NCBI GenBank assembly: GCA_963804955.1
Contig: CAWDSQ010000024.1
Span: 96,001-160,000 of the forward strand
Source of the DNA: an uncultured delta proteobacterium
GTDB lineage: Bacteria; Desulfobacterota; WTBG01; CAIYCZ01; CAIRTM01
DNA length: 64,000 nucleotides
Direction: 5' to 3'
The notes under the pieces are model-generated. The model was not told the DNA's origin, ran no database searches, and worked only from the letters and a program-made list of their open reading frames with translations. Both the position numbers and the translations under genes were made by a program. Shown in pieces: positions 37,481 through 61,513 of this stretch; position 1 is the stretch's first letter, and every line of letters starts with the position of its first letter.

Positions 37481-38483
37481 TTACTGCCTGAATCCCTGCG
37501 GATGGCCTTCATACCATTTCTGAAGGCTTCTGATGCTTGCCTCAAGGGTTTTTTCGGTCTTCCAGTGAAGGGTTATAGTGGCTTTTTCAGGCTGGGCGTA
37601 GATGCTCGAGTATTCTCCCTTACGGGCTTCCTTCTTGATGAGGGGTATGGAAACGCCGCACACCTCCTGAACTTTCGAGACTATCTGCTTGACGCTGTAG
37701 CCTGTGCCATTGCCGAGATTAAAAATGTCGCTTGCGCCGCCGGCATCGAGATACTCCAGGGCCGCCGCATGAGCCGCTGCAAGGTCCTCGACATCAATAT
37801 AGTCGCGAATCGGCGTGCCGTCAGGCGTATTCACCTTCGGGGCAGGTCAGATAAAAAGGCTCGATATTCATGGCGCCGCGCACCGCGTTCTGCATAAGAA
37901 GCTGCGACGGCCGCTTGCTGTCGCCGATGCGGCCGTCCGAGCTTGCGCCGCAGACATTAAAATAGCGGAGAATGGCATAGGAAATTCCGTGAATATCGCC
38001 ATACCAGCGAATCATCTTTTCTGACAAAAGCTTGCTTTCGCCATAGGGATTCATGGGCTGCAGAGGATGTTTCTCGTCAACAGGCAAATACCGGGACTCG
38101 CCATACACCGCACAGGTTGATGAAAATATAAGTTTTTTCAAACTTTTTTTCCGCATAGCTTCAAGCAGATTATATGTTCCAACCGTATTATTGTAAAAAT
38201 ACAGCTCCGGCTGTTCCATGGATTCGTTGACCAGACACAGAGCGGCAAAATGCATAACAGCGTCGATATCAGTATCTTTCAATACAGCATCTATATCATC
38301 GGGATTTCGCAAATCACCCTGAACAAAGCCGAGCTTCCCATAGGTCTTTAAAACATCAACGGCTTCACTGTAGCCGCGCGAGAGGTTGTCAAAAACAATG
38401 ACCTCGAAACCTTTTTCAAGCAGCAGTTTAACCGCATGACTGCCTATATAGCCGGCGCCGCCGGTAACCACTATTTTTTTCAT
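37481..38483 (-). CDS. galE: UDP-glucose 4-epimerase (frameshift near 37840)
   Basis: [40 protein letters not shown]. Confidence 0.92.
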
Positions 38484-39092
38484 TACACACCCTTCTGCGC
38501 GCCATGTTTTTTTACTTTTGAACCGCTCTGAATGAGCAAGAAAATTGCGCAGCAGCTCTTTCCCGCAGCTTGTCAGCACTGACTCAGGATGAAACTGAAT
38601 TCCTTCAACCGGATACTCGCGATGGCGTATGCCCATGATTTCATCATGATCTGTCCAGGCGCTCACCGTGAAACAGTCCGGCAGGGTTTCTTTTTTAACG
38701 ATGAGCGAATGATAGCGCGTGGCGTTAAAAGGGTTCGGGAGGCCTTTGAACAGATTTTTGCCGTCATGGAAAACAGCAGATGTTTTTCCATGCATGATGC
38801 GCTGTGCCCGCACCACTGCCGCGCCGAAAACCTCACCTATGCACTGATGCCCGAGGCAAACGCCCAGTATGGGATACACGCCCTTGAAGCGGTCAATCAG
38901 CTCTTTGGATATACCGGCATCAATGGGCCTGCCGGGGCCGGGTGAAATGACGATCATCGCAGGCTTGAGCGCGTCAACCTCAGCAAGCGTTATGGCGTCA
39001 TTGCGATACACGCGCACGTTCTGCCCGAGCTCGCCGAAATACTGAACGAGATTATAGGTAAACGAATCATAATTATCTATCATCAAAAGCAT
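38483..39092 (-). CDS. trpG: Anthranilate synthase component II / PabA glutamine amidotransferase
   Basis: [30 protein letters not shown]. Confidence 0.92.
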
Positions 39093-43317: not shown

Positions 43318-43558
43318 AACGGCCCTCCCCGGCTTGTTATAAACTTTACCTATACGATACTTATAGTATGTGAACAAAAATATCAAATACTTATTACATG
43401 CTAATTGATAGTAAAAAGTGTTTGAAAACTTGATTCAGAATGACACCCAGGCTTTTTTCTACGGCTTGTACCGGGTGCTGTATGCAGGATGATTCATCTT
43501 GAGTTAAAAAGCAGGCCGCGGTATCATCGTGAGAAGATTGACCTGATGCTTGCTGAAT

Positions 43559-45915
43559 ATGCCGCCAAGAAAAAAATCCGTTCAGAAAAAAAGGCCTCGA
43601 AAGAGATCGCGCCGGGCGCTGCTCATCGCACTGGCCCGTATTGTACTGACCGGCAGCTTTACTGCCGCCTTTCTGCTGGCCCCGTACTGCCTGTACCTGT
43701 CCAAAAAAATCGATAACCGGTTCTCTGGCAGGCGCTGGGATATACCTTCACGCGTATTTTCCGATACCGTCCTCATCATGCCGGGCCAGGGCATACGCAT
43801 AGATTCGTTCAAGGAAAAGCTCAAAGCCCTCGGCTACCGCGAGGCCCCGTCAAAACCTCGCCAGAAGGGTGAAATGAAGGTGTCGGGGCAGGAAATTGAA
43901 ATTTTCCTGCACGACATTAAAATCCCCGGCCTTGACCGGCCCGGCTTCCCGGTGCGCATAACAGCCGGCGGCGGCACGATCCAGGCGATACGTTCCCTGC
44001 CCGGCGGCAAAAATCTTCCGATGATAGAGCTTGAGCCGGAAGAGGTCATGCTCTTTTATGGCGACGAGCATGAGCGCAGAAGGCTCATCACCCTCGACCA
44101 GGCCCCCCGGCATTTTATACAGGCCGTTCTTGCCGCCGAAGACCGGCACTTTTACAGCCATTACGGCCTCGATCCCATAGGCATCGTGCGGGCGCTGTTT
44201 GTAAACCTTCTGCATGGCGGCATACTCCAGGGCGGATCGACCATCACCCAGCAGCTGGCAAAAAATTATTTCCTGACCAGCGAGCGCACGATTATCCGCA
44301 AGCTCAACGAAGTGATCATAGCCCTGATTATTGATGCCAAATACGAAAAAAACCAGATTCTTGAAATGTATCTGAATGAAATTTATCTCGGCCAGAAAGG
44401 TTCGGCATCCATAAACGGCTTCGGTGAGGCAGCCTTTTTTTACTTCGGCAAGCAGGTAAGCGACCTGACGCTCAGCGAAAGCGCCGTGCTGGCAGGGCTT
44501 ATCAAATCGCCCGGCCAGTTCGGGCCCTTTGCCGACAAAAAAGCCTGTGCCGGGCGCCGGGACCAGGTGCTGGCCGCCATGCGCGAAAACGATATGATTA
44601 CGGACATGGAGCTGAAGACTGCTCAGCAGGCTGCCCTGCGCACATCCGCCTATAGCCCCACCAACAAAAAGGCTCCGTATTTCATGGATTACCTCGCGCT
44701 GCAGCTGCGCGACATGTATCCGCCCGAGGTGCTCAACGGCATGGGCCTGTCCATCTATACAACTATCGATATGCAGGTGCAGACGGCTGCCGAGCATGCC
44801 CTTGCCAGGGGCCTTGAGCGGCTTGAAAAGGCGCAGCCGGCGCTGCGCCGCGAGGAGCCCCGGCAAACAGCTTCAGGGGGCCGTGATAGTCATGAACCCG
44901 AAAAACGGCGCCATAAAAGCCATGGCCGGCGGCAGGGACTATGGCGCAAGCCAGTTCAACCGCATTACCCAGGCCCGCCGCCAGCCCGGCAGTGCGTTTA
45001 AGCCCTTTGTGTATTTGAGCGGGCTCGACGTATGCACTCCCGCGACAATTCTGTCAAATGAGCCGCGCACCATGAAAATAGGGCGCACGCAGTGGGAGCC
45101 GAAAAACTACGACGACATACCCGAGACGCAGCTCACCATGCGCGAGTCACTTGCCCGGTCGGTAAATCTGACAACCATCGACCTTGCCATGCGCACGGGC
45201 CTTTCCCGCATTCTTTTCACCGCGCGGCAGTTTGACTTTTCCACACCCCTTTCGACCTCGCCATCGATGGTGCTGGGCGCATCTGAGGTCATCCCCCTCG
45301 AGCTTGCCCGGGCCTACTGCGCATTTGCCTCCGGAGGCGTGCTGCCGGCGCCCTTCTCACTGAAAAAAGTTGTCGATGAAAACGGCGCCGTTCTGGCGCT
45401 GCGGCATATGAGCGCCAAACGGGTCATGCCGCAGGACAAGGCTTATATCATGAATTCATTGCTGCGAAGCGTGGTAACGGAGGGCACTGCACGGGGTCTT
45501 GCCGGTCGAGGAATCACCATCCCGGCTGCCGGCAAGACCGGCACAACCAATGATTCACGCGACGCGTGGTTTGTGGGATATACGCCCGATTTGCTGGCGC
45601 TGGTTTGGGTGGGCTTTGACGATGGCGATTCCATACGAAATACCGGCGCGACGGCAGCCCTGCCCATCTGGGCCGAGCTCGTGAAGGCTGTTCCGCAGTG
45701 CACGGCCGGCGTCATGGTTTGCTCAGCCAGAAGGTGTTATCACAAAAACAGTCTGCAAAGAAAGCGGGCAGCTGGCCCGTGAAGGCTGCTGCCCGCTGCA
45801 ACTGGATGAAGTGTTTCTTGCTGCCCGTATGCCCTCTGAAGTCTGCACCCTGCATCCGGAAGGGCCCGTTTCAAGGGTTATCGAAAAGATCAAAAATTTT
45901 CTAAGCCCGTTCTAA
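43559..45915 (+). CDS. mrcB: Class A penicillin-binding protein, PBP1B-like (frameshifts near 44860 and 45710)
   Basis: UB2H-like region, AAEDRHF, QGGSTITQQLAKN, RQPGSAFKP, GKTGTT. Confidence 0.9.
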
Positions 45916-48966: not shown

Positions 48967-49044
48967 AGTGGGTGCCTCCTTTAAACAGTAGAGAAGGCAG
49001 CGCCTGGTTCCCATGCTCGCAGCAGGTGGGTGAAACCGCCTTCT

Positions 49045-49080
49045 TTAACAGTAGCTACAACCTAATGGGTCTAGGTCCAT
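49045..49080 (-). CDS. Candidate 11-aa leader peptide MDLDPLGCSYC (MgtL-like)
   Basis: GGAG-6 nt-ATG; ends 78 nt upstream of the transporter start and is followed by a GAAGGCGG/CTGCCTTC stem. Confidence 0.6.
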   Translation of the reverse strand: MDLDPLGCSYC

Positions 49081-49246
49081 GGATTACTCCATAAGGGTTT
49101 CTCTTATGCGAAAGGCCGTATTGCCTGTACGCGCATTTTTAATAGCCCGAATAAAACAAAAAGTAAATGTTTTTTTGCCGTCAGATCGAAAAAACACTGG
49201 ATTTTTAAAGAGGTTGCTATCTTTGGGTAAGTGTTTATGCCACCGC

Positions 49247-49549
49247 TCAACAAGGGCCGCGGGTAATGCGAGACAGGTCGATATTGACGTCAAAAATTTT
49301 TGCGCTAATCCCTGTTATGCCTGAATCCTTCAACCGTGCCGCATGCTTCTCAAAATAGGCTTGTGCGCTTTTTTCATCCTCAAACAGATAAATTCCACCG
49401 GCCTCCCGGGCCGCTTCATTTTCAGTCCATATCTTCCAGACGAGACCGGGCTCCTGGCTGATTGAATGCGCCAGTCCCGACATTGTTTCAGCCAACTGCC
49501 TGCCGAATGGCCCTTGAAACACAAAGGTGATCTGTAGCAGCTTTGCCAT
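49247..49549 (-). CDS. ydhR: YdhR-family putative monooxygenase
   Basis: [30 protein letters not shown]. Confidence 0.9.
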
Positions 49550-49708
49550 TATCCTTCATCTACTGTTTTGAGCAGGCCGCCCTGCCCGCCCTGTGAAAAA
49601 AATTGGTTCTGAGCCTTATCCGCAATAAAGCAGAACCACGATACTGTGTTGAGCCAGGACTGCTGTCGCCGATCAGCCCGTCACCGATGAACCTGCGAAC
49701 TCAAACAG

Positions 49709-50057
49709 TTATTGATCTGCCAGCCAGTCCATGGCCTGGCGCAGCACAATCTGCCGGCCTGTGAGGGCAATAAGCGTTTGAACCACGATTTTTTTCAGTC
49801 CCTCAACGCCGACCACAAGGCTTGCTTTCATATGAGGGGTTACCGTAGCTGAAAATTTTTTCATATGCTCGGCCCCCTCCCGGTCATAAGGCATCAGTCA
49901 CATTGGTCAAAAGGCGAACCGATTTCAGCGGCTCTTTCAGCATCAGGCTCTGCGCCCGGTCAAAAATATTCATGCATGCCTTCACATCCCCAAGTCCGGT
50001 CATATCCTGCGCCAGTATCATTTTGCCCTTATGCTCATTAAAATATACTCTTTCCAT
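49709..50057 (-). CDS. Small STAS/SEC14 (SpoIIAA-like) protein (frameshift near 49890)
   Basis: MERVYFNEHKGKMIL...VRLLTNVTDA / ...ASLVVGVEGLKKI...AMDWL. Confidence 0.6.
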
Positions 50058-50348
50058 GGCGCCACCATAAAGAGTTAATCCTGTCTTTTAACGGAACAAA
50101 AACTTCAGCGGTAATAAGGCCTTTGCTACTGCAACCGCTTTCCATACTGGATATAGAATGCCGAGGCGCCTTGTCAAGAACAAACAGTGTCACGGGGAGG
50201 CCGTGCAACAGACTTTCATACCGCCTGGCAATGTAATCGGTTGCTGGTGTCAACTCATGCATATGCCAGCAGGCCATCAGCAGTCAAACGCAGTGGGCCC
50301 GTCTGTCCCCTTTCTTTCCTCCGCACATACGAAATCCGTATTGGGAAA

Positions 50349-51350
50349 TCAGTCTGAGCCTGGATAGCCAGCAGGCGCATGCGGGCTGTCTGTAAGAAAA
50401 TGATAGAGAATCCGTACAAACTCATCCGGCTTTTCCACCTGGGGCATATGGCCGCACTGCGGAATGACGAACAGTGCTGATCGTTGTATATCCTGATTAA
50501 ACCGGCAGCCATATTTCAGCGGAATCCAGCTGTCATTTCTTCCCCATATAATTACGGTTTCCTGTTTAATGTCCTGTATGCGGCCCGAATATGTCAGGCT
50601 CAGTTCCTGATCAGTCGACAGTGCCTGCGCAATGGTGGATTCAATGCCGCCTTTGGTTCGCAGCCTGTCGAAATACGCATCGATTCTGGCATCGGTTATT
50701 TTTTCAGGATCGTAGAAAGCCTTCTGAAGGCCCCATTTTACCATCCAGCGGTTAAAGGCAAGGTTCACCCAGAAACCTGGAAATGGCAGGTATGCAAATG
50801 AGGCCGAAATAAAATTTTTTTTATCAGGCGGATAACCGCCCGCGTCAACCAGAACCAGCCTCCTGACTTTTTCAGGATAATCAAGAGCCAGGATCAAAGC
50901 TATTGCCCCGCCAAGTGAATTGCCTACTACGGTAGCATTATCAAGCCCGGCTTTTTCCATCCAGTCCGAAACTTCATCCGTTAAAGTAAAAAGGTCGTAC
51001 TGTGCATTACGGGGCTTGTCGGACCAGCCGCTCCCTTTTATATCAACAGCCCACACATGCGGAGCAGGTTTTTTTTCGTCTCTGAATTTTTTCTGCAGCT
51101 TCGGGACCATATCTTCCCAGGTTAATGTGGATGATGCGAATCCGTGGATGAGAACAATATTCCGGCCATCCCCGGGATACTCAAGATAATGGAGATAGAC
51201 GTCCTGTACACCGGAATCAATTTTTATAAATTTGTCGTGCACAGTGGGATTCAGAACAATTCCGGGGGCCAGTCGCTTTAAGCAGGCACTGAGTGCTAAA
51301 ACGGCACAAACACACAAAATCAGCTGCAGCCTCCTCTGCATGCTGCGCAT
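50349..51350 (-). CDS. Alpha/beta hydrolase lipoprotein
   Basis: Lipobox LSAC, IHGF, GNSLGG, WGRND, CGHMP. Confidence 0.9.
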   Translation of the reverse strand: MRSMQRRLQLILCVCAVLALSACLKRLAPGIVLNPTVHDKFIKIDSGVQDVYLHYLEYPGDGRNIVLIHGFASSTLTWEDMVPKLQKKFRDEKKPAPHVWAVDIKGSGWSDKPRNAQYDLFTLTDEVSDWMEKAGLDNATVVGNSLGGAIALILALDYPEKVRRLVLVDAGGYPPDKKNFISASFAYLPFPGFWVNLAFNRWMVKWGLQKAFYDPEKITDARIDAYFDRLRTKGGIESTIAQALSTDQELSLTYSGRIQDIKQETVIIWGRNDSWIPLKYGCRFNQDIQRSALFVIPQCGHMPQVEKPDEFVRILYHFLTDSPHAPAGYPGSD

Positions 51351-51695
51351 GGTGTTCTCCCGTTGTTTTGCGTTGAAAAGATACAGCGGCCTTAAGAGAT
51401 ACAGACAAAGCATTCTTTTCATGGTAAAAGGCCTCACTGAAATTTATGAATAGTGCTTCGGACCGCAGGATCACGGTACCGGCAACACATACTTCACATG
51501 TGTATGCCGTCAGGTTTTCTCTAGTATAGCACAAGCATTGGGCTTACATGGCGCTGTTGCCCCCGATTTTAACTATCCCCTGTATTAAGCCATTGACCCT
51601 CAAGCACCCAATGCCTAAATTTATAAATATATCATCTTGCAGCCGTGTTTCTTCTATCCGCATCAGCACATAACAAACACATAAAAGAGAAAATC

Positions 51696-52175
51696 ATGAA
51701 AAAACATTCATCAGCCTTTGTTCTTGTTGTCGCTCTTGCTGCAATGATTGCGGCATGCAAGCCCGCAGGCGATCCGCTGGTGACCATTACCGGGTCAATC
51801 AATGTATGCAGTGCAAAAGATGGCTATGTCCTTGATCAGGCTGCATTTGACAGGTGGTCGGTCGAGCAAACCTATAATGATCCGTGGGACGGCGTGGCGC
51901 TCTATAAAGGCCTCCTGCTTTCAAAGATTCTTCAGCTGGTCAAAGCTTCTGACGAAGCAACAACCATCACCCTGACCGCAAAGGATTCACTGAGGGTTAC
52001 GATTCAAATTACCGATATACTGCAGCACGATATCTTGTTTGCCCGCTGGAAAAACGGCCAGCTCCTGACCGAAGAAACGCACGGCCCGGTGAAGGTTGAA
52101 TTTCCAGATGGCCTGGAAGACTCCTATACGCAGGATGACTGGGCATGGTGGGTCATTAAGGCTGAAATAAAATAA
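51696..52175 (+). CDS. Lipoprotein with Oxidored_molyb-like domain
   Basis: Lipobox IAAC, YKGLLLSKIL, AKD, HGPVKVEFP, WAWWV. Confidence 0.65.
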   Translation: MKKHSSAFVLVVALAAMIAACKPAGDPLVTITGSINVCSAKDGYVLDQAAFDRWSVEQTYNDPWDGVALYKGLLLSKILQLVKASDEATTITLTAKDSLRVTIQITDILQHDILFARWKNGQLLTEETHGPVKVEFPDGLEDSYTQDDWAWWVIKAEIK

Positions 52176-52231
52176 GGCCGGGAGTAAAAACGGGGTCAAA
52201 TTGAACTCTTGTTTCAATTTTCCATTAATAA

Positions 52232-52492
52232 TTATCCATGTTTTATTTTTAAAACCAGGACGCTTACCGTCAGCAGCAAGGAAGTTCCGTTTGCAATGAT
52301 TATTGGAAATTCCTTGAGCATACACCCGTATATAACCCACAAGAATACTCCGATTGTTAAAAACACATACATCAGTAAAGAAATGTCTTTGGTATTCCGT
52401 GTTCGTATAGTCTTGATAACCTGCGGCAATAAAGAGCCTGTTGTAAAAATGCCGGCAAGTAAACCGATAGTATTTGTTATGCCTGTATCCAC
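52232..52492 (-). CDS. SemiSWEET sugar transporter
   Basis: TTGSLLPQVIKT..T..TKDIS, LWVIYG, PIIIAN. Confidence 0.92.
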   Translation of the reverse strand: MDTGITNTIGLLAGIFTTGSLLPQVIKTIRTRNTKDISLLMYVFLTIGVFLWVIYGCMLKEFPIIIANGTSLLLTVSVLVLKIKHG

Positions 52493-52707
52493 AATACGCT
52501 GTTCCTTTTTTTATTACTGCTCTGCATTTTTTCAGGTTAAAATGAAAACCAACTGCCCCTTCTTCTTAGTAAAATGGTGCAGGTGTTCGTCAAGGCAAAT
52601 GAAAGCGACGGATATTGTCTGGGACAGCGGAGATTATCCGACCGGTGAAGGTGCGACACCTTGTTTCACCCTGTCTGCCATCCCGGCATAACCCCGCTGG
52701 CCCGCAA

Positions 52708-53502
52708 TTACCGGGGGGGCACAGTGCCGCCACCTGTTCTGGTCTTCGGAGCGGGGCGCTGATCGCCATGTGCACGAGCATGCCTGTTTTTAGCCGGTTT
52801 TTTTGATTCTCTTTGGCTGTTATCAGTTTTCACACTGCCATCCGTTCCCCTGTCTGGAAACAGCTTGTCAGCCTTGAGCAGGCCACTCTGATCTGCAAGG
52901 TGGAGCCTTGTCTCTTCCTCTTTATTTTTTGCATTCACCTCAACACCCTGAGCTTCAGCGCCGGAGCGCATGGCAGCATCAAGAACAGGTTTCAGTAATG
53001 CAGCATAGCCGGTGTTGTGGAACTCCTCCATATATATTCGTATTGCATCTTCATTGGTTTCCCATTTAATAATCTGGTATCGCCGTTCCGCAGTGCGAAG
53101 CTCTGACAGCCTTTTTGCTGCTTCCTGTGCAAAAAGGCTTCCGGGATATTTGTTCTGAAAGCTCCTGTATTCTTCGGAAATGTCTTTTTGCCGCGCAGCA
53201 TCAAAATCGTTTATTTCCTGAATACGGGCTTCAGCCCTGCTTCGGTACAAGCCATCGGGGAAATCCTTCAGGTACATTTCATATGGCGGTATTGTCTGGC
53301 TTGACAGTATTTTGCCCCAGGCGTCAATATCCGCTATTCTCTGCCGTGCTTTTTCTGCAAGACCGGATTCGGGGTAATCGGTTATAAATTTCTGATAGGT
53401 CGGCATTGACGGCGCTTTTTCGGCTGTTTGAAATACGGATTCCGGACTTGAACAGCCTGCACTGCAGAGCAACAGAATAGGCAGCCAATAAACCTTAGTC
53501 AT
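52708..53502 (-). CDS. Lipoprotein with YxxFxxxYP helical repeats and a degenerate ankyrin-like segment
   Basis: Lipobox SAGC; repeats YQKFITDYPES, YEMYLKDFPDG, YRSFQNKYPGS; VNAKNKEEETRLHLA; 3' end possibly frameshifted. Confidence 0.7.
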   Translation of the reverse strand: MTKVYWLPILLLCSAGCSSPESVFQTAEKAPSMPTYQKFITDYPESGLAEKARQRIADIDAWGKILSSQTIPPYEMYLKDFPDGLYRSRAEARIQEINDFDAARQKDISEEYRSFQNKYPGSLFAQEAAKRLSELRTAERRYQIIKWETNEDAIRIYMEEFHNTGYAALLKPVLDAAMRSGAEAQGVEVNAKNKEEETRLHLADQSGLLKADKLFPDRGTDGSVKTDNSQRESKKPAKNRHARAHGDQRPAPKTRTGGGTVPPR

Positions 53503-53719
53503 ACACATTTCCCTGTACAAACGAATTATCGTGAAAGAAAGGCAAAAAATGATGCGCATCGAGACGTGAATCACTGTTAAGCTTTTGCATTTATCATCTA
53601 TTGTGGTGTACTATAACAAAGACCGGTTTTCCCGGCAGCAGCCTTGTTCGGGTTTCGTTGCACATTTTTAATAGTACCAGTATCCGCTGAAATAGTCATG
53701 AAATATCCGCATAGTTCAT

Positions 53720-54220
53720 ATGGCAACATTTAAAAAATTACAAGAGCAGACAGTTTCATTATTTCCCATGATTAACATCCTGATCTGCACATTAGGGGTC
53801 ATGATTTTTATTTTGACGACCATTACAACAATTTCCCTCGGCATCGATAAGACGGTAATAATTGTTCCGGAAGTACATGATTTGAATAAAACCCATGCTA
53901 AACTGCCGACCTATTTTGAATGGAACGGCTATGAACTGACAGCATACCCGTCAAAACAGACACTGGGATTCGGCATCGATATCCATAAATTAAAAACATT
54001 TAAAAAAACCTATGACTACATTGATACGAAAATAAAGGCCCATCCTATTGGCTATATACTGAATGAAATACAATCAAACAGTACTGCGAGATACATGGTT
54101 TTTTTAATCCGTCCTTCCGGATTTCATAATTTCAAGGATATTAAGGGCTATTTTGAAGGCAAAGGCATCGATATCGGTTATGAACCCATTGATCAGCAGC
54201 TGAATATCAGAAGGAAATGA
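53720..54220 (+). CDS. ExbD-like single-TM protein with Asn at the conserved Asp position
   Basis: SLFPMINILICTLGVMIF TM; C-terminal FLIRPSG...IGYEP. Confidence 0.65.
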   Translation: MATFKKLQEQTVSLFPMINILICTLGVMIFILTTITTISLGIDKTVIIVPEVHDLNKTHAKLPTYFEWNGYELTAYPSKQTLGFGIDIHKLKTFKKTYDYIDTKIKAHPIGYILNEIQSNSTARYMVFLIRPSGFHNFKDIKGYFEGKGIDIGYEPIDQQLNIRRK

Positions 54221-54223
54221 GCA

Positions 54224-54925
54224 GTGGCCTCCAAAAAAAGCAAATCACTGATTGCCGGGATCAATATTGACTCGCTGATGGATATTATGACGTGCCTGTT
54301 CGGCATAATCCTTTTTGCCATTGTTATTGCCGTTATTAATGCGCGCGGCGTGAATGTTAAAATGTACATGCCCATGGCTGCCAGCCCTCCGGAAAAAAGC
54401 ATCCGAAAAATCTGCATCTGCGCCAATGGAACGGTTCGGGTTTTAGATGTATCTGCCGCCCTGCTTAAACTTGGCGTCAATCAGGCAGAAACAACGTATG
54501 AAAGTCTTCCCTGGTATGTTGCGTACGCCAACAGTAAAAATATTTCTGATGATTATTTTCGCTATAAACTGGATTATGTTGAATCCGCAGACAGTGCGGG
54601 GCGCGTTCGAGGCTTGTCTTTTATCGTTGAAGAGCGACCGGGCTTGAAGGGTGATACCGTTAACGATCTAGAGCAGCCACACTCAAAATTTGACAGTGCA
54701 CTAAAGACCTTTGACAATAAAAAACACTGGGTCGCTTTCGCTGTGGATAAAGCGAGCGTCGCGGTATTCAAAAAAGCACGGGAGCTTTGTATGCAAAAGG
54801 GTTTTATGACAGGCTGGGACCCGGCAATCATACAATTTCCCTATAGAGAACCGCTGTTTGATGCTGATACTGCATCCGGCGATGTTTTACCAAGTCCTGA
54901 TTTAAGTAAAATCAATACAAATTAA
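54224..54925 (+). CDS. ExbD-like single-TM protein with intact TM Asp
   Basis: NIDSLMDIMTCLFGIILF TM; C-terminal F.KAR...GWDP. Confidence 0.7.
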   Translation: MASKKSKSLIAGINIDSLMDIMTCLFGIILFAIVIAVINARGVNVKMYMPMAASPPEKSIRKICICANGTVRVLDVSAALLKLGVNQAETTYESLPWYVAYANSKNISDDYFRYKLDYVESADSAGRVRGLSFIVEERPGLKGDTVNDLEQPHSKFDSALKTFDNKKHWVAFAVDKASVAVFKKARELCMQKGFMTGWDPAIIQFPYREPLFDADTASGDVLPSPDLSKINTN

Positions 54926-54936
54926 GGAGGATACTC

Positions 54937-56751
54937 GTGGCGCTGATATGCCCAAAGTGCAATACCCTGAACGACAAGACGGCCGGGTTCTGTATGAACT
55001 GCGGATCGGCGGTTGCTGCGAACAGCAGCGGTGCCTCGGCAAGCTTTACCGCTGAAAAAACAGCAGCACTGGATCACATAAAGGACTATTCCGAGCGTAC
55101 TGTTGCCGCTGTTCTCATACCCATGTTTTTAAGCATGTTTATCACCTTTGTTTTTCAAAAATACATTGTTGCGTATTTTGGCCATGCCAATTTTTTATAC
55201 CGTCTTCTGATACCAACCGGTGAATGGTTGCAACTCCTGGTGCCGACATTGACGTTTTATATCTTTGTGTGGTCATGCATTGATCTGCTCTGGAAGGCCC
55301 TGAGGAACATAAGGATTTCACGATGCCTGGGCAATGCTGTTGTGTCACAGCTGCCGATATCTGTCAGGAGTAAATCGATTGATGCCATTCTTCAGGAACT
55401 TGCACAGGTGCCTGACGCCATCAGGCACAATATTGTTTTCATGCGCATTCTGTCACTCCTGCAGCATATACAGTCAACACGCGACTTGCAAAGAAGCCAT
55501 GAATTTTTCAAACATCAGACATCCATAGATTCTGATACTGCGCAATCCGGCTATACCCTTATTAAAATTTTCATCTGGGCAATGCCCATTTTAGGATTTC
55601 TTGGAACCGTTATCGGCATCAGTGATGCAGTAGGGAATTTTTCAGGATTTCTGAGCGGTGATATCGAAAAAGTAGATATTATTAAGAGGGAGCTTGCAAA
55701 AATTACCACAGGCCTTTCCTATGCCTTTGATACGACGCTGCTCGGTTTGGCCGGCAGTCTTGGCGCCATGCTGTTTTCCACCTTTGTGCAGACAAGAGAA
55801 GAAACCTCACTGACGGATTTGGAAGAATTAGGGTTGAGAATTGTTGCCAATGCCAGCACGGGAACGGCAGATACAAAAGCCGATGAACTAGCTGCCAATC
55901 GGGCTGAGCTGAGCGATCAAATAGCGGGATTTTCACAGGCGATCAATCACCTCACTGTACAGCTGCATGCCAATGCTGAGAGGTTACGTGACGCGCCTGC
56001 ATTGATCGAAAACTTTTGCAGAAGTTTTTCCAAAGAAGCGGGTCTTTTGACAGACTGTCTGGGTACGTCAACATCGCGATTACACGACATCACGAAGAGC
56101 CTCTCTGACAAAGAATCAGAGGACTCGATTATGCAGTCATTAAGCCGGTTCAAGATGATGATGCATGATCAGACACAGACCGTTTCAGAAAACATACGAA
56201 GCTTCATAAAGAGCATGCAGGAAAGCGCCATTGCACTATCCGGTGAATTTTCCCGGCTGCCTGATGAAATAAAATCGTATCGGGCTGGCTTGAAAGAGGA
56301 ATCAGAGCATTTATCGCGCAGCATGACGCTTGCAGCAACTCATTTTGAAACCCTCACTGAAAAAACTCAGCAGTTTCATGAATCAACGCAGCTATTAGTG
56401 AATGAATTTTCGCAGTTGTTCCCCATAGTGCACGAAAATGAACAGGTGATCAAAAACAAAATTCATGAATTTGAAGAATTAAGCAGCCAGTTCAAGGCGG
56501 CCTTTACCGCCAATACGGAAAGATTCGTCACGTCTCTAGGCCGCTTCTCCGGCAAGGTTGAGGACCTGAACGCTACACAAAAGACCACGGCGCAGGCTGT
56601 GCAGGCATTGGATGAACTGAACCTTTTAATAAGCGCCATGCAAAAATCGCAGGAGGACATCACGCGATTTTTAAGCGAGCTGACGGGCCCGCTTGAATTC
56701 AGGTTATTTCCTGCCGCAAAGGCCTCGTCGGAAAAGCCCTCAAAAAAATAA
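54937..56751 (+). CDS. MotA/TolQ/ExbB proton-channel protein with N-terminal Zn ribbon and long helical tail
   Basis: CPKC..CMNC, PILGFLGTVIGI, GLSYAFDTTLLGL, about 300-aa helical C-terminus; AGGAGG RBS. Confidence 0.85.
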   Translation: MALICPKCNTLNDKTAGFCMNCGSAVAANSSGASASFTAEKTAALDHIKDYSERTVAAVLIPMFLSMFITFVFQKYIVAYFGHANFLYRLLIPTGEWLQLLVPTLTFYIFVWSCIDLLWKALRNIRISRCLGNAVVSQLPISVRSKSIDAILQELAQVPDAIRHNIVFMRILSLLQHIQSTRDLQRSHEFFKHQTSIDSDTAQSGYTLIKIFIWAMPILGFLGTVIGISDAVGNFSGFLSGDIEKVDIIKRELAKITTGLSYAFDTTLLGLAGSLGAMLFSTFVQTREETSLTDLEELGLRIVANASTGTADTKADELAANRAELSDQIAGFSQAINHLTVQLHANAERLRDAPALIENFCRSFSKEAGLLTDCLGTSTSRLHDITKSLSDKESEDSIMQSLSRFKMMMHDQTQTVSENIRSFIKSMQESAIALSGEFSRLPDEIKSYRAGLKEESEHLSRSMTLAATHFETLTEKTQQFHESTQLLVNEFSQLFPIVHENEQVIKNKIHEFEELSSQFKAAFTANTERFVTSLGRFSGKVEDLNATQKTTAQAVQALDELNLLISAMQKSQEDITRFLSELTGPLEFRLFPAAKASSEKPSKK

Positions 56752-57111
56752 ATCGCAGAAAACCAGTGGTTCTTCACATTTGTTTTTGTACGCACCCGAC
56801 CCGCCCCCCCCTGTCCAGGGGATGCGCTTTTCGGGTCAAACTTCATTTCAAAGCCGGTATTTTTGCCCAACCTGGTCAGAGGGGTTAGGGGGGGTGCTAA
56901 ACCGTAAATTTCAAATGTGACGGTCCACTAGCCTTTTTTTATATGCCCATAATTCCGGTACGTCCCCTGGTCCTGTTATTTTTTTTTAAAGTTAATTTAA
57001 AAACAACCGATTATTAAATTAAAATCAAATACTTCGACAGTGTTTGATTTTTACTCTCCGTCAATGAGGCGGAATATTATCGAAACCCAATATACAGGAA
57101 AGGGAAAAATT

Positions 57112-57192
57112 ATGGCAACAGCAAAAAAAGCTCCTGCGAAAAAAGCTCCTGCGAAAAAAGCACCTGCGAAAAAAGCGGCTAAGAAGAAGTAG
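57112..57192 (+). CDS. 26-aa histone-H1-like basic peptide MATAKKAPAKKAPAKKAPAKKAAKKK
   Basis: Purine-rich RBS, 15-nt repeat encoding KKAPA, terminator directly downstream. Confidence 0.75.
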   Translation: MATAKKAPAKKAPAKKAPAKKAAKKK

Positions 57193-57210
57193 TTGCACCG
57201 GATTCCCCCA

Positions 57211-57243
57211 AAAAGGCAGAGCATTCGCAGCTCTGCCTTTTTA
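57211..57243 (+). terminator. Terminator after the basic peptide
   Basis: AAAAGGCAGAGC-loop-GCTCTGCCTTTTT. Confidence 0.8.
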
Positions 57244-57525
57244 TTTTGCAGGTGCAGGGATCAAAGACAGGAAAAGGGAATGGTTCTCATTATAAAATAG
57301 AACCATTCCCTTTTTTTTCGCCCCTGCTGGTTCCCGGTTCAGGGGTGCTTTAAAACAGACCATTTATGTGCTATCAGATTACATGACCGCTTTACCTAAG
57401 ACTTTTTTTGCCTTGTTGCGTCACGTTATGGTATTACATACGTACCAGGGCAGCAGTATCTGAACGGCTAAGGACTGAATTTTTTTGCAGCGCCACTAAA
57501 ATTTCAAAGCAGAAGGGTTCCATCC

Positions 57526-58053
57526 ATGAAGCATCACATAACAAAAACCATAACGTATTTTTTGGGAGCTGCGGTACTTCTGTGTGCAGCCGGGGAAGGA
57601 GCATTTTCCATGGAAAAGGGAAAAATAGAGCTATTCGATGCCCGGACGGGCAAGACAACACTTGTCGATAAAATAATAAAAACAAATGCTGAATGGAAAC
57701 AGCTTCTCACGGCCGAGCAATATGAAGTCACGGCCAATGCGGGGACGGAAAGGGCGTTTACCTGCGGCTTTCTCAATCAGAAGGAAAAGGGCCTGTACAA
57801 ATGCGTCAGATGCGGAACAGATCTTTTTCAGTCGAGCACAAAATTCGACTCGGGCACAGGCTGGCCAAGCTATACAGAGCCCGTATCAAAGCTCAATATT
57901 GTGGAGCAGCAGGACCGGTCAGCCGGCATGGTGCGGACAGCTGTTGACTGCGCACGGTGCGGCGCCCATCTCGGCCATGTTTTTGACGACGGGCCGCCTC
58001 CCACGGGAAAAAGATATTGCATAAACGGAATAGCCCTGCAGTTTGTAAAGTGA
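57526..58053 (+). CDS. msrB: Peptide-methionine (R)-S-oxide reductase with signal peptide
   Basis: [31 protein letters not shown]. Confidence 0.95.
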
Positions 58054-58291
58054 TGCCCCCTGCCCCACAGGCAGACATGCTGCATCTTTGAATGTGCAGC
58101 TTTCCCTCAAGCCGGGGCAGGTTCACAACGCCTTCCGGTTGGCGCCCTGTGAGATCAGAAGTAAAATTAATGACTGTTGTTCATGCCCGGTAATCAGGCA
58201 ACTCTTTTGGGGCGCCAGGTTGAGTTATTCATTTATTCATGACTGTCACCTGGTTGGCCCCGCGCGGTTTTTGTTTGCGCCTTAGTTCTTT

Positions 58292-58663
58292 TCAGTGGAG
58301 TATGCTTTGCACGATGCTGACAAGCCGCGCGGGCTCGATGGGCTTTTGAATAAAGCCGATAAAGCCGAATTCGCGTATTTGCGTTGTAGCGGCAATTTGA
58401 TCCGCCAGGTTGCTTATAAGGTATATGGGTATGTCGCTGTTGTACCGCTTGATCTTTTGAGCGGCCTGAGCCCCCGAGTCCATTTCCTCCATCATCATAT
58501 CGCACAGTATCAGGTCCGGATTGGTCCTTTGCGCAACATCGAAGCCCTGCCTGCCGCTGGTGGCCGACACAACCACATATCCGTTGCGGGTCAGAACCGT
58601 ATTGACGGTTTCGATGATGTCGGGGTCGTCATCAATCACAAGCACTATTTTTGTTTCTGCCAT
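58292..58663 (-). CDS. Single-domain response regulator
   Basis: VLVIDDD, DLILCDMMM, KP. Confidence 0.9.
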   Translation of the reverse strand: MAETKIVLVIDDDPDIIETVNTVLTRNGYVVVSATSGRQGFDVAQRTNPDLILCDMMMEEMDSGAQAAQKIKRYNSDIPIYLISNLADQIAATTQIREFGFIGFIQKPIEPARLVSIVQSILH

Positions 58664-59073
58664 GACGTTCTCCTTTGCTGCCGGTTTATCTCGTGCAAGG
58701 CCTCATGGAACGCAGATGATTGTCTGCCGGGAACCCACTGTACTTTTAAAACTATAAAATGCAGGCCCTTGTGTGTCAAGGCAAATGAGAGGGATAGTGC
58801 CCTGGACAGCGGACCTGATCCGACACATGAAGATGCGCCCTGTCAACTCAATAAACTTCTCCCTTTCTGATCAGGGCAATTTGCCAACTGCCCTGATCCC
58901 GCCTTTATTGATGTATGTATGGACGCCCCCCACGTTCAACTCTTTGTGTATTGCGCGGCATTCAGAATATATGCTATTGTTTGCTGAATTATTACTGCAT
59001 GCACGGATGGCCCGTATGGGCCTCCACACAGGCAGTGCCATGCGCACCTGATCCGTGTCAGGAAAAAATCGAT

Positions 59074-61340: not shown

Positions 61341-61513
61341 GTATGAAATTACAACAGCCCCCTTTTATTGTCTGCATAAAACCACCGCCTTTGGCGGTTG
61401 ATGCAGAAGCAACTCGGCACTGCGTGACTCTTGTTTTCCCCTTTCAGGGGAATCCCAAGCCGCCCGCTATGCGGGTGGTAATTGACTTCCGCAACACCAT
61501 CAAGGATCAGATT

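Follow-up and report, generated by a model that had tools for sequence, protein, structure and literature searches.

The window analysed here, 64,000 nucleotides (nt) of a contig from an uncultured delta proteobacterium (GenBank assembly GCA_963804955.1, contig CAWDSQ010000024.1, positions 96,001 to 160,000), contains a group of three forward-strand genes, here called A, B, and C, whose predicted products resemble the subunits of ion-driven membrane motors. Positions are counted from the first nucleotide of the window, and those of the genes and their parts are given in Table 1. The tight packing of the three genes reported in a preliminary description of this DNA was confirmed: all three frames are intact, A and B are separated by 3 nt and B and C by 11 nt, and the sequence AAGGAGG lies at 54924-54930, directly 5' of the GTG start of gene C.

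The product of gene C had been described as a channel subunit of MotA/ExbB type with a CxxC..CxxC ribbon and a tail of about 300 residues, and each of these features was recovered. It passed the Pfam model MotA_ExbB (PF01618) with 40.3 bits over residues 175-296 at a cut-off of 22.9. The N-terminus reads MALICPKCNTLNDKTAGFCMNCG; the ribbon that it carries was present in 14 of 25 aligned members of the C family, the remainder being without that extension. The channel core contains the motif QRSHEFFKHQ and transmembrane (TM) helices TM3, IFIWAMPILGFLGTVIG, and TM4, GLSYAFDTTLLGL, with conserved Thr and Asp. Membrane helices were located by hydropathy at residues 55-73, 100-118, and 208-226; a fourth, at about 258-285, stayed under the hydropathy threshold and was placed by the Pfam match and the alignment. 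C is thus predicted to have four membrane helices, the positions of which would put both the ribbon and the 305 residues after the last helix in the cytoplasm. This tail contains 6 Pro and 9 Gly, is rich in Ser, Leu, Ala, and Glu, and gave weak matches to helical and coiled-coil families. Its length varies across the family, the C proteins ranging from about 360 to 860 amino acids (aa).

The alignment of 25 homologues yielded the consensus QRSHExFRHQ, FIWAMPILGF.GT..GI (TM3), GLS.AFDTTLLGL (TM4), and L..L.GPLEFRL.P at the end of the protein. Residues H188, E189, H193, W214-P217, G223, T224, T266, and T267 were invariant (25/25), and D265 was conserved in most sequences, with Asn in some. T224 in TM3 and T266/T267 in TM4, matched to other motors by motif alignment, are the predicted conserved pore-lining Thr residues, and Thr residues of ExbB and TolQ are presumably their equivalents. 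In ZorA the pore residues are Thr147 and Ser184 (PMC11946911). At the tip of the tail, L582 and P585 were invariant and E587 nearly so in the same 25 sequences, and the pattern P-[LMFIV]-[EDQ]-x-[RKQ]-x was found near the C-terminus in 21 of 76 open reading frames (ORFs) of the homologous loci, many of these ORFs being cut. The cyanobacterial forms end in KPRRITLVE and the Pirellulaceae forms in QVVVQQVE..RRGWF.

A search of a 5.8-billion-protein set returned 65 homologues of C at E ≤ 1e-3. The closest was 88% identical and the others at most 37% (BLASTP); one copy elsewhere has C 88% and B 96% identical to the window proteins. The likeness to ZorA that had been suggested for the tail is one at the level of the superfamily: C matched the PADLOC model ZorA2 (PDLC00635) with 30.5 bits (E 4.7e-8) over residues 198-560, 20 of the 25 C proteins compared matched the same model at E ≤ 1e-3 (lowest E 2.5e-9), and weak matches to the ZorA1, ZorA2, and ZorA3 models recurred across the family. 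Judged from these profiles, the similarity appears genuine and weak. Sequence searches of the PDB with C, with B, and with profiles of A and B gave chance-level rows only. In a whole-genome Pfam scan, four further MotA/ExbB genes of the same genome scored 89-126 bits compared to 43.8 bits for C, which is therefore an extra, divergent copy.

Genes A and B encode single-pass proteins. In A, the TM helix (...VSLFPMINILICTLGV...) extends over residues ~14-42 and is followed by a periplasmic alpha/beta domain at ~60-164; in B (...INIDSLMDIMTCLFG...) the periplasmic domain is larger and has insertions. AlphaFold2 models (predicted local distance difference test values of 85.5 for A and 84.9 for B) each show one long helix and then an alpha/beta domain. 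When the models were compared with 48,161 chains in the VIA structure search, which works independently of Foldseek, Escherichia coli TolR (5by4_A) came first for both, with Z 7.0, a root-mean-square deviation of 3.5, and 88 aligned residues for B (next row 5.8), and with Z 6.3, 4.4, and 85 for A (next rows 6.1 and 6.0); Haemophilus influenzae TolR stood lower in these lists. Because the Z values are in the tool's "common" range, a periplasmic fold of the TolR/ExbD type is likely for A and B, not secure. Foldseek found no PDB match at E ≤ 1e-3 for either protein; TolR (5by4) and ExbD (8pek) appeared for A at E ~0.015, among chains of ribosomal protein uS11. B scored 14.1 bits against the Pfam model ExbD (PF02472), under its cut-off of 25.4, and had no match in PADLOC. 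A had no match in Pfam (E ≤ 1), NCBIfam, or PADLOC, and no OmpA-family domain was matched in either protein. In the ESM Atlas, A resembled nameless clusters from Gemmatimonadota, Pseudomonadota, and Cyanobacteriota; ExbD was the first cluster to bear a name, with a score that counts only as a lead.

At the profile level, A and B are paralogues. They aligned in hhalign with 94.6% over 46 C-terminal columns, corresponding to the C-terminal beta-alpha-beta unit (RY.V.L.RPSGF...GID.GYEP against W..F.VD..S...FR.AR....GF.TGW.P). The B profile weakly found the genome's own ExbD/TolR proteins (E 0.0014, in a small set), and the TM motifs of these proteins, EINVTPLVDVM and EINMVPFIDVA, align with INIDSLMDIM of B and VSLFPMINIL of A.

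In this alignment Asn19 of A (LFPMINIL) occupies the position of the proton-binding Asp of ExbD, TolR, and MotB, and B keeps the TM Asp (Asp16 and Asp20). The contrast between one partner with Asp and one with Asn had been noted in the preliminary description, which left its conservation to a survey of homologues, and it was found to hold across phyla. Asn is encoded by aac, in the context ccc atg att aac atc ctg, and the same column is N in 18, A in 2, and T in 1 of 21 aligned A proteins, so a read error is ruled out. Asp16 and Asp20 were invariant in 26 of 26 B proteins. The 66 A-type ORFs of the genome loci described below gave N 24, S 25, A 2, and T 1 for the 52 that could be aligned; the other 14, read by eye, comprised ten of a Gemmataceae type with Ala (..FPFLAVLL..), one with Asp at locus L040, one fragment, and two unresolved. 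An exhaustive search with the A profile returned 1892 representatives at E ≤ 1e-3, 214 of them at E ≤ 1e-10, and among the best 150 of the 1892 the column was N in 40, S in 34, A in 30, G in 8, T in 4, and D in 14, with no residue in 20. Of 54 B-type proteins in a metagenome set, 48 retained Asp as judged by the motif. The exceptions were four unreadable sequences and two false motif hits, one of the latter being an A-type ORF filed under B. L040 (6724-8444) was the only locus in which both small partners had the TM Asp (LFSFMDIM, within ..FSFMDIM.., and FDSLFDVV), a state that may be ancestral or reverted. The loss of Asp in one partner thus appears to be old and maintained with a freely varying replacement, as expected if the position need only be uncharged. 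In the literature searched, neither this trio nor an ExbD/TolR/MotB-like partner without the Asp was found to be described.

The three genes occur together. A genome scan with one genome per species gave 80 loci (designated L plus a number), 75 of which had a C relative at ≥79 bits, and an A-type and a B-type gene were both present within 3.6 kb in 63 of these 75. In 10 of the remaining 12, the contig ended within 1.5 kb on the side of the small genes. L068 had A only and no B. A metagenome scan with a single protein returned nothing and with an alignment 69 loci; among 68 metagenome loci, some on the same contigs, 46 had both small genes, 11 had one, and 11 had none, the incomplete ones being mostly on short contigs. 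Loci from metagenome-assembled genomes (MAGs) and from metagenomes overlap and are interrelated, so that these counts are of non-independent events. The order A-B-C was found in Gemmatimonadota, Calditrichia, Thiocapsa, Arenicellales, and the window, the order C-A-B in Planctomycetota and cyanobacteria, and A-B divergent from C in one Bacteroidales MAG; the split between Asp and non-Asp partners survives the change of order to C-A-B. By these comparisons the trio is a conserved module. At L007 (5938-7518, a Nitrospira MAG), a close C homologue with both the zinc ribbon and the tail tip has E1-like and JAB genes upstream.

The distribution of the module is patchy. C was not found in any of 60 relatives, including 4 of the same genus and 12 others of the same family, and positions 52708-56751 had no DNA match in the four same-genus genomes; the left and right flanks of the cassette match different contigs of one same-genus genome. 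In the class of one Gemmatimonadota carrier, the centre genome was the only one of 151 to be matched, with 10 candidates scored per genome. No homologue was found in 50,697 phage records. The cyanobacterial branch comprises at least 636 proteins at E ≤ 1e-20, many of them chromosomal. From this patchy occurrence it follows that the cassette is accessory, and it was probably gained by transfer, in a variable region.

The neighbours of the trio change from locus to locus. In the window they are metabolic or transport genes (Pfam), and among the 19 window ORFs scanned between 37.8 and 63.3 kb Pfam detected no TonB, TolA, TolB, Pal, OmpA-like protein, TonB-dependent receptor, or Zor effector, in agreement with the orphan status proposed earlier; the same search of 28 neighbours at nine related loci was also negative for these families. 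Both plasmid-borne homologous trios, in which A' has Ser and B' has Asp (hhalign 99.8% and 99.6%), lie in defence islands. In Anabaena cylindrica pANACY.03 (L088 1-7172), cmr4, cmr6, and a Csx1-type CARF-HEPN gene, all belonging to a type III-B CRISPR module, are followed directly and on the same strand by the trio in the order C-A-B. In Microcystis aeruginosa NIES-2481 p1 (L089 1-12539), genes for a methylase, SMODS, SLATT, and an HKD+Snf2 helicase lie on one side of the trio, and REase-like, NUDIX, HNH, GIY-YIG, and integrase genes lie on the other; the helicase, encoded upstream of the trio, matched ZorD1 in part (50 bits), with DrmD models matching more strongly. In Thiocapsa marina (L019), NUDIX, RelA/SpoT-SLOG, and TIR-like genes flank the trio. 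A PADLOC scan of 103 of 162 listed neighbour ORFs returned mostly generic kinases, and most loci were without a defence match. A defence enrichment at the Gemmatimonadota loci was set aside as weak, the matches being mostly generic Ser/Thr kinases, and the upstream genes of 359 and 534 aa at these loci were rejected as members of the module, being of formate-dehydrogenase/NuoG type and common through kinship.

In lineages far apart, the trio is adjoined by a large protein of about 1100-1200 aa, in most cases together with a TPR protein of about 500 aa. At L091, which among the retrieved contigs has the C most similar to that of the window (34% identity over residues 4-603), the operon consists of A, B, and C, followed by genes for a zinc-ribbon membrane protein of 182 aa, a TPR protein of 513 aa, and a protein of 1189 aa, and by the start of a lipoprotein gene. 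The large proteins have a signal-like N-terminus and a faint match to the family DUF1598; no relative of the 1189-aa protein was found in the PDB by sequence. Relatives of this protein occur at L009/L098 (49% identity) and L038, each with a TPR gene, and upstream of the trio at L067; at L023 its place directly downstream of the trio is taken by an RHS-repeat protein. A search for the large exported protein as a partner in the window genome, which is 87% complete, did not find it. The A-type and B-type proteins of Planctomycetota have long periplasmic coiled-coil-like stretches and reach 270-730 aa.

Among the known systems, Zorya is one of the closest. The trio shares with it a ring subunit of the MotA/ExbB superfamily with a long cytoplasmic C-terminal tail of variable length, a patchy distribution with some defence-island settings, and weak ZorA profile matches. 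ZorA spans the membrane with three helices and forms a pentameric tail about 70 nm long; ZorB, in the E. coli ZorA5B2 complex, is homodimeric, carries a peptidoglycan-binding domain fused to it, and has Asp26 in both chains, and the D26N change in ZorB abolishes defence (PMC11946911). In comparison, the trio has two unlike TolR-like partners, one of them with Asp and both without an OmpA domain, in place of a single ZorB, and C has four predicted TM helices and a zinc ribbon. ZorC, ZorD, ZorE, ZorF, and ZorG are absent from the window, and the ZorA match of C (30 bits) lies far under the level of family members. With Ton and Tol systems the trio shares the Pfam MotA_ExbB core with its GT..G and acid/Thr helices, as well as small partners that cross the membrane once, have a TM motif like that of ExbD, and probably have a periplasmic fold like that of TolR (middling Z). 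It differs from them in the absence of TonB/TolA, a receptor, TolB, and Pal nearby, in the failure of A and B at the ExbD cut-off, in its unlike partners, one of which is Asp-less, and in the 604-aa ring subunit with ribbon and tail. Unlike MotB and PomB in the MotAB and PomAB motors, A and B have no C-terminal OmpA-type peptidoglycan-binding domain. The trio is therefore none of the Ton, Tol, Mot, or Zorya systems.

Modules with one ring gene and two different axle candidates have been described. The Myxococcus gliding motor AglR-AglQ-AglS has one TolQ/MotA-like and two TolR-like genes, as does the trio; AglQ and AglS both keep the mid-membrane Asp, unlike A, and whether they form hetero- or homodimers is unsettled (PMC9389320). 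The description of AglR in PMC9389320 mentions neither a tail nor a zinc ribbon. In Planctomycetes-Verrucomicrobia-Chlamydiae (PVC) bacteria and Proteobacteria, TolQ-like genes occur with heterologous pairs of TolR-like genes or of transpore-helix vWA genes, the latter with Asp in both partners and a periplasmic output via the vWA domains (PMC12204202). Like the trio, these modules are orphan systems of the 5:2 type in which the two axle candidates differ, a TPR gene co-occurs, and TonB/TolA are lacking; the vWA pairs differ from the trio, which has no vWA domain, has one Asp-less partner, and has a cytoplasmic ring tail. In Synechocystis, sll0477-sll0478-sll0479 (exbB, exbD3, exbD4) are induced by iron stress and have a Fur box (PMC8634477, PMC4195498). 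As described, they resemble the cyanobacterial trios in the C-A-B order and in having one ExbB-like gene and two small genes annotated as hypothetical, and they may belong to the same family. In the solved 5:2 motors named in PMC11946911 and PMC9389320, the axle is described as a dimer of one protein; an Asp in each chain is shown for ZorB (Asp26) and Campylobacter jejuni MotB (Asp22).

On balance, the trio is probably a self-contained, horizontally acquired representative of an undescribed and widespread family of tailed motors of the 5:2 superfamily, with a heterodimeric axle bearing a single Asp and with a cytoplasmic output. In this model C would form a pentameric ring with channel helices of ExbB/TolQ type and their conserved Thr and acidic residues, to which it adds the cytoplasmic zinc ribbon in this branch and the long tail ending in a conserved short motif. 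The helices of A and B would stand together inside the pentamer as a heterodimeric axle, held by their TolR-like periplasmic domains. The only proton-binding Asp would come from B and a permanently neutral residue from A (Asn here; Ser, Ala, or Thr elsewhere), and proton flow through this single site would turn or ratchet the ring against the axle. As in Zorya, the tail would carry the motion into the cytoplasm, in contrast to a transfer to the outer membrane via an arm of the TonB/TolA type. A more specific version is offered tentatively: a natural single-site motor with an obligate heterodimer as axle and an asymmetric cycle, either of 72-degree or limping steps or of a one-shot ratchet, which does cytoplasmic work via the tail tip. 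Such a motor would be a device for signalling or defence separate from Zorya and would have spread by transfer across at least 8 phyla.

Several observations weigh against this interpretation. The D-to-N change that inactivates Zorya means that a half-neutral axle might not rotate. The column of A holds Asp in 14 of the 130 readable sequences among the best 150 of 1892 representatives, besides L040, and L007 carries C without A or B despite flanks of 6 kb. The likeness of A and B to ExbD/TolR is weak in Pfam and Foldseek and amounts to Z 6-7 in the structure search, where the next rows of A are tied. The defence context was met in three settings only, most Gemmatimonadota neighbours being housekeeping-like.

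The principal alternative for the architecture is a homodimer of B as the axle (5:2), with A peripheral or regulatory as a plug, an assembly factor, or a side-binder resembling TonB. The one-protein axles of the solved motors and the inactive Zorya mutants speak for it, as do the binding of TonB and TolA at the side of the ring (PMC12204202), the smaller periplasmic domain of A relative to B, and the drift of its TM residue among N, S, A, G, and T. However, the helix of A follows the pattern of ExbD (hydrophobic-Pro-x-x-[polar]-I-L...G) and lacks the SHLS/His motif given for TonB and TolA (PMC12204202), the C-terminal domains of A and B are homologous and of the type that dimerises in TolR and ExbD, and A accompanies B about as strictly as C does. 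The A-B heterodimer is favoured over B2 with A outside because of this co-occurrence, the dimerisation-type domain, and the ExbD-type helix of A; the homodimer is appreciably less probable, and a small share is left to other arrangements. That the trio is a decaying or silent relic of an operon of ExbBD type, with no present function, is very improbable. Its character as an orphan cassette without partners in a variable region would fit such a relic, whereas the three intact and tightly coupled frames, the strong ribosome-binding site 5' of C, the existence elsewhere of the near-identical copy, and the functional columns that are invariant across phyla do not.

With regard to the role, an accessory function in envelope sensing or conflict is favoured by the uneven occurrence of the trio and by its location in some defence islands, and the recurrent large exported protein means that the trio may instead act at the envelope or surface. 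In a Zorya-like anti-phage or conflict system, the motor would sense envelope damage and the rotating tail and its tip would trigger a cytoplasmic response, with effectors elsewhere or with none, the response then being membrane depolarisation. Such a system is suggested by the long cytoplasmic tail with its ZorA matches, the failure to find C in 60 relatives, the variable region bounded by dispersed repeats, both plasmid-borne trios, and the flanks of L019. Set against this are the lack of PADLOC matches to A and B, of a ZorB-type OmpA domain, and of further Zor genes, the metabolic or transport neighbours in the window, the yield of mostly generic kinases from the neighbour scan, and the large, often chromosomal cyanobacterial branch; the absence from phage records is taken as neutral. 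A defence-type sensing role is accordingly judged rather unlikely. A Ton/Tol-like energiser of the envelope, working in uptake, surface-protein handling, or envelope maintenance with A as a force arm in place of TonB or TolA, is slightly less likely still. The TolR-like periplasmic domains of A and B, the long Planctomycetota forms, the large exported protein beside the trio at L091, L009/L098, L038, and L067, the RHS-repeat protein at L023, and the iron-stress induction of the possibly related sll0477-0479 genes are consistent with it. However, the Pfam scans around the trio in the window and of its neighbours at related loci detected none of the Ton/Tol components, the search of the window genome did not find the large exported protein, and A, at 166 aa, is too short to span the periplasm; a conserved tip on a cytoplasmic tail would have no known part to play in Ton/Tol systems, and the genome already has four canonical MotA/ExbB genes. 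The greater part of the probability thus falls to some other function directed from the envelope to the cytoplasm.

To our knowledge, every mechanistic model of the 5:2 motors assumes a pair of equivalent Asp residues that act alternately, and a change of this Asp to Asn abolishes function in the systems studied. A large natural family with one Asp would be a ready test of these models, in particular of whether one site suffices and of symmetry breaking versus stepping. The family would also extend tailed, inward-pointing motors beyond Zorya. Its A-type proteins number more than 1,800 representatives and its cyanobacterial C-type proteins more than 600, all of them without a functional name, and annotation pipelines currently miss two of the three genes of the trio.

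Table 1. Positions of the genes and features in the window and of the large-protein loci on other contigs
Feature	Position	Strand	Basis or remark
Divergent lipoprotein ORF, lipobox LLCSAGC	52708-53574	-	Probable start 53502, giving 264 aa
Divergent intergenic region between lipoprotein gene and gene A, 145 nt	53575-53719	.	Promoter presumed
Gene A, 166 aa	53720-54220	+	ORF; TM motif LFPMINIL
Gene B, 233 aa	54224-54925	+	ORF; TM motif IDSLMDIM
Gene C, 604 aa	54937-56751	+	ORF; MotA/ExbB/TolQ-family ring subunit
Putative N-terminal zinc ribbon of C, residues 5-25, CPKC...CMNC	54949-55011	+	Zn_Ribbon_1 24.7 bits, cut-off 25
Channel core of C, residues 175-296	55459-55824	+	PF01618 match and invariant columns
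Predicted cytoplasmic tail of C, residues ~300-604	55834-56748	+	Composition; topology inferred
Conserved tail tip of C, residues 582-592, L..LTGPLEFRLFP	56680-56712	+	25-sequence alignment
Large-protein locus L091	4389-10348		
Large-protein locus L009	3348-8586		
Large-protein locus L038	7038-11980		
Large-protein locus L067	535-3804		

Upstream of gene A, a helical-repeat lipoprotein is encoded divergently, as the preliminary description had stated. It has four Y..F....P.S...A..R repeats of the BamD/YfiO type and scored 31.9 bits against Pfam YfiO; its matches to CpoB/YbgF and BamD were sub-threshold. It was not found in 20 relatives and may for this reason have arrived with the cassette. 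The earlier proposal of a stand-alone module with two ExbD/TolR-like partners stood, and its second part, the lipoprotein as target of the motor, was weakened: no match to the lipoprotein was present in the 80 related loci, so the linkage sought in the neighbourhoods of homologues was not found. The sole support for a link is the end of the L091 operon, where the first 62 residues of a similar lipoprotein match the N-terminus and first repeat of the window protein (33% identity over 58 aa, pairwise E 3e-10). As a conserved partner of the motor the lipoprotein was left as a weak candidate, and its membership of the system is doubtful. In the divergent intergenic region, a consensus scan detected no sigma-70-like site, the counts of sites in a promoter and terminator scan of the region equalled those of shuffles, and an Rfam search of 49000-59000 gave no match.

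Dispersed repeats of 60-170 nt with 70-85% identity were located in the window at ~56762-56934, ~57048-57219, and ~61363-61489, two of them just downstream of gene C. Copies are scattered over numerous contigs of this genome and of the four same-genus genomes, at dozens of sites. Inside the repeat at ~57048-57219, a 26-codon ORF of Lys/Ala/Pro repeats (57112-57192, forward strand; MATAKKAPAKKAPAKKAPAKKAAKKK) contains three 15-nt tandem units and is preceded by a purine-rich site and followed by a hairpin and a T run. Further upstream in the window, a class A penicillin-binding protein is encoded in two overlapping forward-strand frames (43550-45001 and 44796-45782), one for its transglycosylase half and one for its transpeptidase half, an arrangement that may reflect a frameshift, an assembly error, or a genuine split of the gene. 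On the reverse strand, one ORF (37821-39092) combines class-I glutamine amidotransferase and NAD-dependent epimerase/dehydratase domains and adjoins the gene for anthranilate synthase component I.

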